Virus record (IMG/VR): IMGVR_UViG_3300035180_002574
Location: 32,001 to 96,000 of that record
Source: a virus
Reading direction: 5' to 3' (one strand)
Length of the DNA stretch: 64,000 bases
The notes under the pieces were generated by a model. The model made no database searches and was not told where the DNA came from. It was given only the letters and a program-made list of their open reading frames with translations. A program made the position numbers and the translations under genes. Shown piece by piece: positions 18,395 through 22,988 of this stretch. Position 1 is the stretch's first letter. Each line of letters starts with the position of its first letter.

Positions 18395-19480
18395 TTATGT
18401 ACAAAAACTAAGATTAGATTTAATTCTATTAACTTCATTTTCTGGAAGTTTACCACTAGATAACAGGGCTCTGTTTAAAAACAGAGCCTCTTGTTTTTTA
18501 CCAATATAGAACGCTGCAATTGCAAGCTCATCCATAATCTTCCAGTCATAACATCCTGTATCTACAAATAATGAATCTTGGGGTCTAGATATACTAGACC
18601 CAACTTTGGCATAAAAATAGGCTTTATTAAATAATTTCATCTTTCTACAATAAGCACTTAAATAGCATAATGCTTCGTTTCTAATAGGTAATAAGTTGTG
18701 AGCTAATAAATAACTTGTCTCTATCGTATTTAGATCATTTGGTTGAATTTTTTCTAATAATTTCCCGATTTCTAACGCTGAAACAAATTGTTCTTCAACC
18801 CATCCGCCCATAGAAATTCTTTTATTATAAAACTCTATTGCCTTATAACAATTATTATGATTTGTTATACTAGAATCTCTATATGATTGAGCGCAATAAA
18901 AAACATATCTCTCATTATTTGGCTCTTTTAATAATGCCTTTTCAAATATTAATGCATCATTATAATACTTATTTGGATCTTTTGATCTACTACCAGTGCC
19001 TCCAAAAATAATGCTAACATTTTCTAATTTTGAAACAACTGTATTTGGAGGAGCCTCTAAATATTCATGAAGGACTCCAACCCATTTGCATCTAATATCG
19101 TTTCTAATTAAATGAGGTCTTTGATACGTAATTGAACCATGTTTGATTTCTATTTTATAGATAGGATCTTTCAATTCATTAAATGCTAATTTATCATTTA
19201 CCAATAATGTATCATCTGCGTCAATCCATAAAATATAATCAGATTTATTATAAGATAAGTCGAGCGCTAAATTTCTATTCGTTTCAAAATTTTCCCAGGC
19301 ATGCTCATGAAGCTCGCCAGGAATATCTTTTAAATAATCTCTAATAATCTTTTGAGTTTCATCTGTGCTTCCGGTATCACAGATTACCCAATAATTTATA
19401 AATTGTTTTACAGAGTCGAGACAATCTTTAATGCAGTGTGCTTCGTTTTTAACGATCATTGACAGACAGATTGAAGTCAT
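18395..19480 (-). CDS. GT2 glycosyltransferase with C-terminal TPR-like repeats
   Basis: ICLSMIVKNE, CDTGSTD, RNLAL, ILWIDADD (DxD), HEYL, then helical FYCAQSYRD/AYFYAK repeats. Confidence 0.9.
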   Translation of the reverse strand: MTSICLSMIVKNEAHCIKDCLDSVKQFINYWVICDTGSTDETQKIIRDYLKDIPGELHEHAWENFETNRNLALDLSYNKSDYILWIDADDTLLVNDKLAFNELKDPIYKIEIKHGSITYQRPHLIRNDIRCKWVGVLHEYLEAPPNTVVSKLENVSIIFGGTGSRSKDPNKYYNDALIFEKALLKEPNNERYVFYCAQSYRDSSITNHNNCYKAIEFYNKRISMGGWVEEQFVSALEIGKLLEKIQPNDLNTIETSYLLAHNLLPIRNEALCYLSAYCRKMKLFNKAYFYAKVGSSISRPQDSLFVDTGCYDWKIMDELAIAAFYIGKKQEALFLNRALLSSGKLPENEVNRIKSNLSFCT

Positions 19481-19544
19481 ATTACAACATATACCAGTTT
19501 AACCTATAGCCTTTAAAAATTATAATTTTAAAGTTTGCCTATTT

Positions 19545-20253
19545 TCATATTAAAGAGTCAGTCCTATTCTTAAAAGATATCTGTTGAATTGTTCCTGGAG
19601 CTGAAGGTAATATAATATTTATAGTGCCTATAGTCGGATTTATAGATAGATATCTATCTGTGCTAATAGCAAGATATGGTGACGTATATCCATCTCCAGA
19701 TCCACCATATGGTATATTAGAGCCATTTATATTATAATTGATGATATCCCGCCACCACTTCCGCTTCCTCCTAAATAGGCGCCGGCGTGCCAGGTTCCAG
19801 TTAATGTTCTAAATGCATTTAGATCTACTGACGCTGTATTAACATCAGTTAGCGTTATTTCGCCCGGAATAATTTGCTTATCTAAATTATTAAACACAGT
19901 AATTACCACATATTTATTATTGAAATTATGAGGAATTGTTAATATGCCAGAGCCATCTAAATAACCATCTGTGAATGCAAATATATAACCATCACCAGTA
20001 GCACCTGTGGCTCCGGTAGCGCCTGTAGCCCCAGTTGGTCCTATTATACTAGTATGTGTATGATATCCATCAGCATTACTATTATCTGTTAATTTTTTAA
20101 TGCAGTAGCTATAACTGTTGATCCAACAGAAATATCTGCAATTTTAAATCTATTAGATTCTTGATTTGGTAAATTAATTGTAGTGGATATAAATTTATAT
20201 CCATCCCAAAATATACCATCATACTGATTTATAGGTTTACCAGCGAAACTTAT
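19545..20253 (-). pseudogene. Decayed fibre/collagen-like gene in three reading-frame pieces
   Basis: ATA instead of ATG, then SFAGKPINQYDGIFWDGYKF (cf. SHSGKP..WDGHKF at 22404); -1 shift at A6 (20093-20098) into [25 protein letters not shown]; second -1 shift near 19730 into INGSNIPY..INIILPSAPG; C-terminal module truncated. Confidence 0.75.
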
Positions 20254-20293
20254 TTATTATCACTTATGATTAAATATCAAGTTATTTAAACTA

Positions 20294-22404
20294 TTATAAT
20301 ATATTCCATTCTGTACCATTCCATACAAGAGAGCGTGCGCCATAATTAATTGCAATTGTGCTTACTGATGACCCATCTATTGTATTTGTATTTCCAGATA
20401 TAGTTATATTATTTGTCGCGGCATCGCCTTTACCATCTTTAATATCAATTAAATCTCCAGCAACTAGAGATGTATTTGGTAAATTAATTGTAATTGGTCC
20501 AGCAATAGTTTGATTTATAACTAATATTCTCCAACTAGTTCTTGCAGGAGCATATGGGCTAGTCCCCGTATATAAATCGAATACGCTTGAAGCAGATGTC
20601 CCAGTAGCTCCTGCAACTTGTTCAATTATATTCCATTCAATTGAATTATAAATAAGTGTAATTGATCCCCAATTAACTGATATTACGCTAGAAGATGCTC
20701 CATCTATTGTTTTACCATTTCCATTAATAGTAATGTTATTACTATTTGCATCGCCTTTTGCGTCTTTAACAGTAACTATATCTCCATTAAGTGGCGTAGC
20801 TGGCAAATTTAAAGTATATGGTGCGGGCGTAGACTGATTAACAGCAACTACCCTCCATGATGTCTCTGATGGCGAATATGGTCCAGCCAATGGCTGGAAA
20901 TCCATTTTTCTTATTCCAATTATCTTAGTCACATCAATATTTGCATCTGCTGCAATATTATTATTTGTTATGAGCGTGGGAGTCCATTTGCCATAATTAA
21001 TAATTGGATTACCAGATAGATCGTATCCAGTTTGAGTTGTTGGTGACCACGCTAATACATTATTTGCTACTGGCACATTAGGTGCAATACCATATCTTTG
21101 TAATCTTGTAACTACATTATTATCAGAGCGTCTATAAACATCTCCAGTCATGGAGCGAGCATAAAATCTTTTAGGTTCTCCAACTGCAAATGGAGTCATA
21201 GAATTTACATATGAGCCATGTAAGATATTACTATTAGAAGAGCTGCAAATATACACAGTATGGCTAGTGGTAGATACCGCCATGTCATTAAGAGTTATTA
21301 ATGTTGGAGATAAATTAAGTGATACAGCTGCGCCAATAACTGGATAGCCAGCACCGCCATTCGAACAATCAACTGGCGTTAATTCGTTAGCATATCCAGT
21401 ATATTGATTTGTAGATATGATAATCATACTAGCCGTGCCTGCTGAATTTATAATTCTATTATGAGGGGCAGTTGGGCTAACTGCTAATGGAGTATATGTT
21501 GCTTCGGAAATACTTCCGCCTGCAGCATAATTAAAATATCCATCTCCATTGCCACCATCAACGCCAACAATAAAATTACCAAAATAGCTCCAATCAAAAT
21601 CTATCATTTCTGCTGTCGCACTTGATTGTTCTGTTATTCCGTCTAAAGTAACACTTGTAAGCGATGTTGTTCCAATAGGGGGCTTTGGCGGGAAACCAAA
21701 TGATCCTGGTATTTGCTTATGACATACCCATGCCTTTCCATCAAAGATTTTTAAACGTGATGGTATACCTTGGGCAGCTAAAGTCACAAATGTGGATGGG
21801 GTAAGATTACTAGAAGTAATTGTGTTTAAAGTAATTGACCCAGTAAACATATTAGCTGTAACTATAAGTAACCTAGAATGTGCAGAGTCCCACGCAATAT
21901 CTTTATATGATAAAGGGAATAATATTGATCCAGTTGTTGAGATATTATTCGTTACTGGGTCAAACCTTGCAATATTGTCTCCACCCATAGATTGGGTTCC
22001 ATTTAGAATGAAAACACAACCATTTCCACAAGCCAATCGGAAACTAGATGTTGAAAATGATGATACATCATATGAGGTATATGCATAGTTATTTCCTACA
22101 TCTGTTCTAATTAAATAACCATTGCTAAATGACCAAACTACGTCTGATCCGCCAGTTCCGGCACCCCCTTCAACTGCTATTGCGGTTGGGTTCGCCCCCC
22201 CTCTGCACCGCCTGCAACCTCCATAATTTCACCGCCAGTCAATGTAGGTACAGTTAATGTTGTGCCTTGAATTTTACTTAATGTTTGGCTAGTATTTGTT
22301 CCAGATAAATCTCCACCAGTTGTAAATTTAGTTTCTGTAACAAATTTATGTCCATCCCAATATAAGAAATCATTAATATTTGCTGGCTTTCCAGAATGAC
22401 TCAT
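20294..22404 (-). CDS. Fibre-like protein split by a frameshift at a G7 run (track ORFs 22177-22416 and 20294-22036 are one gene)
   Basis: The frame of 20294-22036 stays open upstream through GGG GCG AAC CCA ([12 protein letters not shown]...) to the G7 run at 22195-22201; one extra G gives a 703-aa protein with two C-terminal fibre modules. Confidence 0.75.
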
Positions 22405-22988
22405 GATACGCTCCATTGTGCGCCAGTATATATAAATCTAGCCGCCTGATAGTTTATATTAAAAATAAATGTCAAAGATCCATCTATGTTTTTTGCATCT
22501 GCAGAATTAATAGTAATATTAAATGCTGCGGCACTTCCATTTACATCTTTTATTTCATAAACATCTCCAAGTGATGGAGATGCCGGCAATGATATGGAAA
22601 TAATTCCGGTTAGTGTGCCAATTCCAATATAGTAATCAGCAATAGGTGTAATTACATAATTCGATGTTATAAGTGGCGATGTTACTATAATAGGAGACAT
22701 GCCTCCAGTAGCGCCTGTAGCGCCTGTAGCGCCAGTAGCGCCAGTAGCGCCAGTAGCGCCAGTAGCGCCTGTAGCACCTGTAGCACCTGTAGCACCTGTA
22801 GCTCCTGTAGCACCTGTAGCTCCTGTAGCACCTGTAGCTCCTGTTGCGCCGGTAGCGCCTGTGGCTCCGGTGGCTCCGGTAGCACCTGGCGGACCTGGCG
22901 GACCAGGAGGTCCTACAATCTCAATTGATGGATCAGTGGTATATTTAATACCATCCCATCTAATATAGCCCGGTCGTAAGAAGCTCAT
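22401..22988 (-). CDS. Collagen-like fibre protein (GPP)3(GAT)20 with the shared C-terminal fibre module
   Basis: Gly-X-Y repeats; C-terminus ISLPASP..GD.YEIKD.NG.A..NITI..IDG..NY..W. Confidence 0.9.
22707..22913 (-). repeat. 9-bp tandem repeats: 20 GAT-coding units plus 3 GPP-coding units
   Basis: Units agtagcgcc/tgtagcacc/tgtagctcc counted directly. Confidence 0.95.

Follow-up and report, generated by a model that had tools for sequence, protein, structure and literature searches.

A GT2-TPR glycosyltransferase in a megaphage tail-fiber cassette is a candidate O-glycosyltransferase for threonine-rich collagen stalks

We analyzed a 64,000-nucleotide stretch of viral DNA (positions 32,001 to 96,000 of IMG/VR record IMGVR_UViG_3300035180_002574; hereafter the window, to which all coordinates refer) that carries a gene for a 361-residue glycosyltransferase (GT) among genes for collagen-like and other tail-fiber proteins. 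The source record is 181 kb long with an estimated completeness of 42%, and relatives of the source phage are megaphages of 350–450 kb; a megablast search of the locus against GenBank phages returned no match. The GT gene belongs to a fiber-gene cassette that spans approximately 11.3–23.0 kb of the window and consists of a plus-strand gene pair converging with a minus-strand run (Table 1). In the direction of transcription, the minus-strand order is: a 195-residue collagen-like fiber gene, a split fiber gene, a decayed fiber gene, and the GT gene, whose stop codon abuts that of the convergent 807-residue fiber gene at the cassette junction. The GT gene is located 2.9 kb downstream of the collagen gene on the same strand, with the split and the decayed fiber genes intervening, and both the open reading frame (ORF) layout and the sequence agree with the first-pass annotation of this DNA, which had placed the GT inside a fiber cluster downstream of a (GPP)3(GAT)20 gene. 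As judged by PHROG profiles, the fiber-gene products of the cassette are tail-fiber or baseplate proteins.

The 195-residue protein consists of an N-terminal anchor motif, a (GPP)3(GAT)20 tract and a C-terminal fiber module. The tract occupies residues 26–97 (22698–22913) and is followed by GGM, giving 24 uninterrupted triplets with Thr in the Y position of 20; it contains no Lys, and the protein matches Pfam Collagen (PF01391) with 54 bits against a cut-off of 27.2. In the DNA, the tract appears as a 9-bp tandem repeat of 20.1 copies with 88% matching (22708–22888). A second tract, GPT(GAT)4 at 19988–20041, lies inside the decayed fiber gene, which retains an N-terminal W-D-G-x-K-F anchor motif and a truncated C-terminal fiber module; the second GAT tract announced earlier for a remnant at 19545 is therefore present within the remnant, but not at 19545 itself. 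Since the whole 181-kb record contains just four G-X-Y runs of at least five triplets, two of which are found at the GT locus, the collagen tracts at this position are not a matter of chance.

The 580-residue fiber protein contains two copies (E = 2e-12 and 5e-12) of the roughly 65-residue C-terminal module of the collagen protein, and the 1564-residue protein ends in a further copy (E = 1e-9). A module of this type (L-P...I-K-D...N-I-T-I...I-D-G...W) is common to all fiber proteins of the cassette (11266–22988), several of which also share an N-terminal W-D/N-G-x-K/A-F/W motif, and this combination points to interchangeable bodies between fixed ends. We also observed that Asp-Gly-Tyr (DGY) tripeptides are dense in the decayed fiber gene beside the GT and rare in the intact fiber proteins of the window (0–2 per protein).

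Table 1. Features of the fiber cassette, the neighboring insertion-sequence (IS) region and the distal sugar cluster.
Feature	Position	Strand	Evidence or remark
1564-aa fiber gene (spans 11266–18394 together with the 807-aa gene)	11266–15960	+	beta-propeller-like repeats; ends in shared C-terminal module
807-aa fiber gene	15971–18394	+	beta-propeller-like repeats; weak NHL/LVIVD repeat matches
GT2 (GT-A) + TPR glycosyltransferase, 361 aa	18395–19480	-	Pfam PF00535, PHROG 13126, AlphaFold2 model
Decayed fiber gene, broken over three frames	~19545–20280	-	three-frame translation, collagen scan
Fiber gene body, 580-aa ORF	20294–22036	-	two copies of C-terminal fiber module; PHROG tail-fiber/baseplate families
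79-aa N-terminal part of split fiber gene (body = 580-aa ORF)	22177–22416	-	ORF list, frame check
Collagen-like fiber gene, 195 aa, proposed acceptor substrate	22401–22988	-	Pfam Collagen, tandem repeat
tnpB, split into two ORFs	23283–23711 and 23720–24406		IS200/IS605 element
tnpA	24403–24729		IS200/IS605 element
LAGLIDADG endonuclease remnant	25160–25799		beside IS element
Methionine aminopeptidase	25762–26592		beside IS element
Nucleotide-sugar epimerase/dehydratase	42300–43277	-	Pfam, PHROG
GT2	43530–44357	-	Pfam, PHROG
Fpg DNA glycosylase	45396–46238		within sugar cluster
GT2	46580–47317	-	Pfam, PHROG
GT4/GT1	47318–48460	-	Pfam, PHROG

The only Pfam family found in the GT is glycosyltransferase family 2 (GT2; Glycos_transf_2, PF00535), which covers the first 100 residues with 42.2 bits (cut-off 23.3). 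The enzyme has one DxD motif, DAD at residues 87–89, and all family-invariant residues are retained: D35, D40, G55, R69, D87, H138 and E230. PHROG 13126 matches the full length (E = 7.6e-30; residues 4–346 on profile positions 3–344 of 394), where the profile name “beta-1,4-glycosyltransferase” is an annotation label only. An AlphaFold2 model based on 78 homologues (mean predicted local distance difference test score, pLDDT, 97.6; predicted template modeling score 0.92) predicts a GT-A domain from residue 1 to about 165, followed by ten helices of tetratricopeptide-repeat (TPR) type, arranged as five pairs, at residues 171–360. When the modeled helical half is compared on its own, it aligns with the peptide-binding TPR domains of Sti1, HOP and RPAP3 at Z-scores of about 16. 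The first-pass annotation had described a GT2 enzyme with an intact DxD motif and a TPR-like tail, and both features hold. Neither a signal peptide nor a membrane helix was found in the 361 residues, and the GT is predicted to be a soluble, cytoplasmic enzyme.

When the model is used as query, SunS and ThuS, two peptide S-glycosyltransferases, stand alone in the Protein Data Bank (PDB) in matching both domains of the GT. Foldseek ranks SunS/ThuS first in the PDB (E = 4e-16), followed by the wall-teichoic-acid enzymes TarP/TarS at approximately 1e-6, and VIA-align gives Z = 22.3 for SunS (266 residues, 2.7 Å) and Z = 20.9 for ThuS; matches that involve the GT-A part only do not exceed Z = 17.8. 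SunS and ThuS (PDB 7msn, 7msp, 7msk) share with the phage enzyme a GT-A plus TPR-like architecture, a DxD motif and an H-E motif, and their reaction modifies a polypeptide inside the cytoplasm. Unlike the phage GT, SunS carries an additional segment at its N-terminus and targets a single Cys in a small peptide, and the identity is only about 20%. By sequence, the best PDB match is the GT domain of GmaR (E = 6e-11, residues 6–113). GmaR from Listeria monocytogenes (PDB 22ao) likewise combines GT and TPR domains and O-glycosylates a filament protein ahead of its assembly, but it is about twice as long as the phage GT, serves as a thermosensing anti-repressor of MogR, and modifies flagellin with O-linked N-acetylglucosamine (O-GlcNAc) (PMC9638930). 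Every characterized enzyme that resembles the whole GT glycosylates a polypeptide in the cytoplasm.

A close functional precedent is SgtA of Clostridioides difficile, a 358-residue GT-A plus TPR enzyme whose gene adjoins bclA3 and which adds beta-O-GlcNAc to Thr of the BclA3 collagen repeats, as reproduced in vitro with uridine diphosphate (UDP)-GlcNAc and Mn2+ (PMC7157674); the precedent cited in the first-pass annotation is thus correct. Like SgtA, the phage GT is soluble and of similar length, and in both enzymes a GT-A domain at the N-terminus is followed by a TPR domain at the C-terminus; like sgtA its gene is found near a gene for a Thr-rich collagen-like surface fiber. Unlike the SgtA/BclA3 pair, the phage partner is a tail-fiber protein, whereas BclA3 is an exosporium glycoprotein and belongs to the spore coat. 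We use the term SgtA-like on the basis of architecture, context and proposed chemistry, not of alignment.

To test for co-occurrence with collagen tracts, we collected three sets of loci with a GT relative (80 viral, 79 bacterial and 80 metagenomic) and searched their six-frame translations for G-X-Y runs of at least six triplets. The family is large, with 16,247 representative clusters at E ≤ 1e-3, and it occurs in at least 583 viral contigs; the closest homologues of the GT share 57–76% identity with it. A scan of viral contigs that started from the single protein gave eight pattern matches, none of which was confirmed by tblastn, and an alignment was needed instead. The closest viral structures in BFVD are giant-virus GT2 proteins (A0A3G5A4J5, A0A1V0SEC5 and A0A481Z8F6; template modeling scores 0.91–0.93, 34–38% identity) from Harvfovirus, Indivirus and a pithovirus-like virus, which implies that the family is common to tailed phages and Nucleocytoviricota.

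In the viral set, made up of IMG/VR loci with relatives that are 35–46% identical to the GT, a collagen run was found within 10 kb of the GT in 37 of the 80 loci, and the run is on the GT strand in 36 of these 37. The tracts concentrate close to the enzyme: the bin 1–2 kb downstream of the GT contains a tract in 22 loci over 67.6 locus-kb (0.33 per locus-kb), and the far flanks contain approximately 0.014 tracts per locus-kb. Taking viral and bacterial loci together, about 40% have a collagen-like tract within 3 kb of the GT relative. The viral neighbors that carry the tracts are tail-fiber proteins by PHROG, and the gene orders vary: (i) the GT followed by a fiber protein of about 1100 residues; (ii) the GT followed by one of about 850 residues; (iii) a small structural protein between the GT and the collagen fibers; and (iv) a collagen gene ahead of the GT. 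In all three sets, the Y positions of the GT-adjacent runs are 50–58% Thr and the X positions are mostly Ala or Pro. Clustering of the GTs at 60% identity yields 94 clusters, and in 31 of them at least one member has a Thr-rich run no more than 3 kb away.

The same linkage is seen outside viruses. The bacterial set comprises relatives that are 38–46% identical to the GT and come from many phyla, with a full neighborhood available for 59 of the loci; 26 of these 59 have a collagen run within 3 kb, and 24 of the 26 runs are Thr-rich. The genomes are those of Polyangiaceae, Parachlamydiaceae, Comamonadaceae, Thiothrix, Cupriavidus, Verrucomicrobia, Cyanobacteria and Actinobacteria, and no Bacillota are present among the best 80 loci of the bacterial genome scan. 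GT and collagen genes occur in same-strand, convergent and divergent layouts. A perfect (GXT)6 sequence occurs in only one or two places in a bacterial genome of 4.5–6.8 Mb, and in four of the five genomes checked one such place is 0.3–1.5 kb from the GT. We considered whether the bacterial hits could be prophages and rejected this for the inspected loci, in which the collagen-like partner carries a signal peptide and is encoded amid ordinary chromosomal genes. As a separate observation, in many Gram-negative bacteria and Chlamydiae (loci L087, L102, L111, L126, L148, L093 and others) a secreted G-A-T/G-P-T collagen-like gene adjoins a GT2-TPR gene whose product is 38–46% identical to the phage enzyme, and this collagen gene is often the only (GXT)6 locus of the genome; the pair looks like an uncharacterized surface-glycoprotein system.

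Within the clade of the source phage, one 354-kb metagenome contig (L163), the sole close relative among the matches listed in the metagenome scan, encodes a GT that is 56% identical and has the same backbone synteny beside the cassette. Here the GT starts 25 nucleotides after a collagen gene of 47 triplets, immediately adjacent, as in many of the viral and bacterial relatives, where the window has a 2.9-kb interval, and another fiber gene contains a long (GAT)n run. The fiber genes of L163 are not homologous to those of the window; since the GT is kept nonetheless, it is the stable element of a variable cassette. The fiber proteins of this contig (185–4834 of the locus) have 9–10 DGY tripeptides each. 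In five other relatives, identified by a backbone gene with 64–69% identity, neither the GT nor the family profile found a match in a search whose positive control, jumbo-phage record G006, was recovered with E = 1.9e-111. (GXT)4 runs were counted in four of the GT-less relatives, three of which are at least 97% complete: three have none, and one has a single run of five triplets. The record of the window has (GXT)4 runs at two places, both in the GT locus, and long GXT runs are present in both clade genomes with the GT (the window and L163). The GT and genes of the substrate type thus appear and disappear together in this clade, in a small sample. The association of GT2-TPR enzymes with GXT collagens that the first-pass annotation had put forward as a check was positive in viral contigs, in bacterial genomes and in the megaphage clade itself.

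Based on the GT-A plus TPR fold, the intact catalytic motifs, the position in a fiber cassette and the conserved proximity of such enzymes to G-X-T collagen genes, we propose that the GT and its collagen neighbor are the phage version of the SgtA/BclA3 pair, with the GT O-glycosylating Thr residues of the fiber collagen stalk; we assign this reading a probability of roughly 0.7. Since the family adjoins Thr-rich collagen-like genes in phages as well as in bacteria, the phage's own collagen fiber is the most likely recipient of the sugar. The earlier suggestion of a BclA/SgtA-like system is supported both by this co-occurrence and by the fold, where all matches to both domains are protein or peptide glycosyltransferases. 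The suggestion of a glycan-coated virion goes too far for the particle as a whole, and the evidence points to the collagen stalk of the fibers.

The mechanism that we infer, including the acceptor residue, the sugar donated, its timing and its benefit, is as follows. The GT would act as a cytoplasmic, metal-dependent GT-A enzyme whose TPR domain holds the collagen chain while this is unfolded or folding, here the (GAT)20 stalk encoded at 22401–22988. The GT-A site, with a metal bound by the DAD motif and a nucleotide sugar as donor, would transfer a sugar during infection to Thr in the Y position of the G-X-T repeats, a position that points outwards in a triple helix. Transfer would probably occur before, or as, the chains zip into the triple helix, and the first sugar may then be elongated with the help of the epimerase and the three further glycosyltransferases encoded at 42.3–48.5 kb. 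Two benefits seem likely: (i) stabilization of a proline-poor triple helix that lacks hydroxyproline; and (ii) a hydrophilic, protease-resistant or adhesive surface of the fiber stalk. Without galactosylation of its Thr residues, the peptide (Gly-Pro-Thr)10 stays a random coil, and it has been suggested on this basis that glycosylated Thr takes the place of hydroxyproline outside animals (PMC11923368). The (GAT)20 stalk, with just three GPP triplets, should accordingly need the help of a glycan, and stabilization is at least as likely a purpose as the shielding or mimicry envisaged in the first-pass annotation.

Several observations weigh against this proposal. No collagen tract was found within 10 kb in 43 of the 80 viral loci, so that adjacency is frequent rather than universal, and because many loci come from related phages, the raw locus counts overstate their independence. 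In the window itself, 2.9 kb with a split and a decayed gene separate the GT from the collagen gene, and a promoter/terminator scan gave fewer promoter-like sites than in shuffled controls. A 37-kb fragment from a close relative (L250) contains a collagen gene of 44 triplets and no GT within the fragment. Finally, the best NCBIfam match of the GT is the SunS family (TIGR04195), at 41.5 bits against a cut-off of 350. Five jumbo records among the loci without a nearby tract have long Ser/Thr-rich G-X-Y genes elsewhere, an observation made without a matched GT-negative control; the general G-X-Y pattern reads the same backwards, and a reversed-pattern control was hence uninformative for this check. 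In the complete jumbo-phage records of three loci (L026, L049 and L066; G006–G008, 270–373 kb), enormous G-X-Y arrays of the Gly-Ser/Thr-Ser type give hundreds of overlapping 8-triplet matches, some of them at the very ends of the records.

The absence of a tract from about half of the viral loci, where the GT nevertheless resides in a tail-fiber module, allows for a different acceptor on the virion: Ser, Thr or Tyr elsewhere on the fiber, neck or baseplate, for example in DGY tripeptides, several of which are found in the decayed gene beside the GT and 9–10 in each L163 fiber protein. We consider this unlikely. The intact fiber proteins of the window are poor in DGY, the GT-less relatives lack GXT runs apart from the single five-triplet run, and an equally tight association with G-X-T collagen exists in bacterial chromosomes, with a secreted collagen-like protein as the partner in place of a phage fiber.

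The GT could also be directed at the host, altering lipopolysaccharide, teichoic acid, another envelope polymer, or flagellin or pilin, and thereby blocking superinfection or reprogramming the cell. Phage relatives carry database names such as “beta-1,4-glycosyltransferase” or “lipooligosaccharide (LOS) glucosyltransferase”, which reflect annotation transfer, and glycosyltransferases in the hypervariable fiber regions of pelagimyophages have been interpreted in this way (PMC7029224). The GT-A part of the fold also occurs in TarS, TarP and RmlT, and flagellin is the substrate of GmaR. However, the wall-polymer enzymes match the GT-A half alone (E about 1e-6, Z 15–16), well below SunS and ThuS, the GT has no membrane segment, and a host target would leave unexplained why the pairing with collagen genes is conserved in both bacteria and phages. 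Taken together, a host-directed role is improbable.

That SunS and ThuS are the closest solved structures, and the SunS family the best NCBIfam match, raises the question of whether the GT is the SunS-like maturase of a phage-encoded glycocin, a small secreted antimicrobial peptide. This is very improbable given the score far below the family cut-off and the low identity to SunS: no small Cys-rich precursor, ATP-binding cassette (ABC) exporter or thiol-disulfide oxidoreductase is encoded nearby, where the neighbors are fiber genes and an IS element, and the absence of a conserved small Cys-containing ORF beside the GT across the fetched loci also counts against it. Glycosylation of hypermodified bases in phage DNA as an escape from restriction, the classical role of phage glycosyltransferases (PMC9614988, PMC12619734), is the least credible reading, as TPR domains bind proteins or peptides, the gene is in a fiber cassette rather than among nucleotide-metabolism genes, the chromosomal homologues adjoin secreted collagen-like genes, and the fold search gave no resemblance to known DNA glucosyltransferases.

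Collagen-Thr glycosylation by the GT can be compared with described cases in which a virus glycosylates its own particle. In mimivirus, as proposed here, the virus encodes both a collagen-like fiber protein and the glycosylating enzyme (L71 and L230), but L230 hydroxylates Lys and glucosylates the hydroxylysine by means of a PLOD-type enzyme (PMC9614988), whereas the tract in the window lacks Lys and the GT lacks a hydroxylase domain (Pfam finds GT2 only). Mycobacteriophages encode glycosyltransferases that glycosylate the virion (Freeman et al. 2023, as cited in PMC12619734); by that account, the glycans are on the C-termini of capsid and tail-tube subunits, without involvement of collagen repeats. 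The individual elements are therefore known: the pairing of a GT-A-TPR enzyme with a Thr-rich collagen in C. difficile, glycosylation of phage virions, and collagen glycosylation in giant viruses by a different chemistry. A full-text literature search gave no paper on the GT2-TPR family with G-X-T collagen fibers in tailed phages, in line with the earlier remark that such systems are little described there, and none on a conserved GT2-TPR/collagen pairing across Gram-negative bacteria.

Bacteria, archaea and viruses show an unusual abundance of collagen triplets with Thr, for which Thr glycosylation has been proposed as the reason (PMC11923368), and enzymes for this reaction have been identified in a few spore formers only (PMC11923368, PMC7157674). 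One enzyme family is now tied by neighborhood to G-X-T collagen genes in hundreds of phage contigs and many bacterial phyla and, within one megaphage clade, by presence or absence as well. We put forward a broader role tentatively, as a possibility short of our favored reading: the GT2-TPR family may be the general collagen-Thr O-glycosyltransferase of bacteria, tailed phages and giant viruses, an enzyme long looked for behind the non-animal excess of G-A-T and G-P-T triplets, a functional counterpart of prolyl hydroxylation needed for triple-helix folding, and in phages moved together with G-X-T fiber genes as one exchangeable cassette. The pair in the window provides a concrete enzyme-substrate candidate that is testable in Escherichia coli. 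If the proposal is correct, many phage tail fibers bear phage-made sugars, which would bear on adsorption, environmental stability and immune recognition in phage therapy, and the enzyme would offer a simple tool for producing glycosylated, hydroxyproline-free recombinant collagens.

Additional glycosyltransferase domains are fused to some family members. A “Rosetta stone” fusion of GT and collagen was sought among 73 long members, none of which contains a G-X-Y run; the extra domains are other glycosyltransferases. Four long members (P0123, P0133, P0228 and P0235) combine GT2-TPR with GT25, PLOD-type GT (seen only in the distant member P0133), Anp1-like, GT1 and GDSL esterase domains, and are single-chain glycan assembly lines. 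GT25 is the family of animal collagen galactosyltransferases and of bacterial LOS enzymes, and GT25 and PLOD-type GTs are the domain types of the collagen glycosyltransferases of animals and mimivirus. In the window, a second sugar cluster on the minus strand (42300–48460), 23 kb from the GT, may have an accessory role and could supply or extend the glycan of the GT at 18395. Both the cluster and the fusions to GT25 and PLOD-type domains fit an initiating enzyme whose product is extended later. The cluster also contains a 347-residue protein without an assigned function, beside the Fpg gene.

The split fiber gene of the cassette is interrupted at a G7 run (C7 on the plus strand, 22195–22201) that cuts the 79-residue N-terminal anchor from a body of about 630 codons in the -1 frame; a frame check showed that the open frame of the 580-residue ORF extends upstream to this run, which is the sole G or C homopolymer of at least six bases in 18000–23300. 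The gene could be a phase-variable or frameshift-controlled fiber. An IS200/IS605 element is located just upstream of the collagen gene (23283–24729), and the neighbors on its far side include an ORF at 27182–28495 that, from its sequence by eye, we take to be PhoH.

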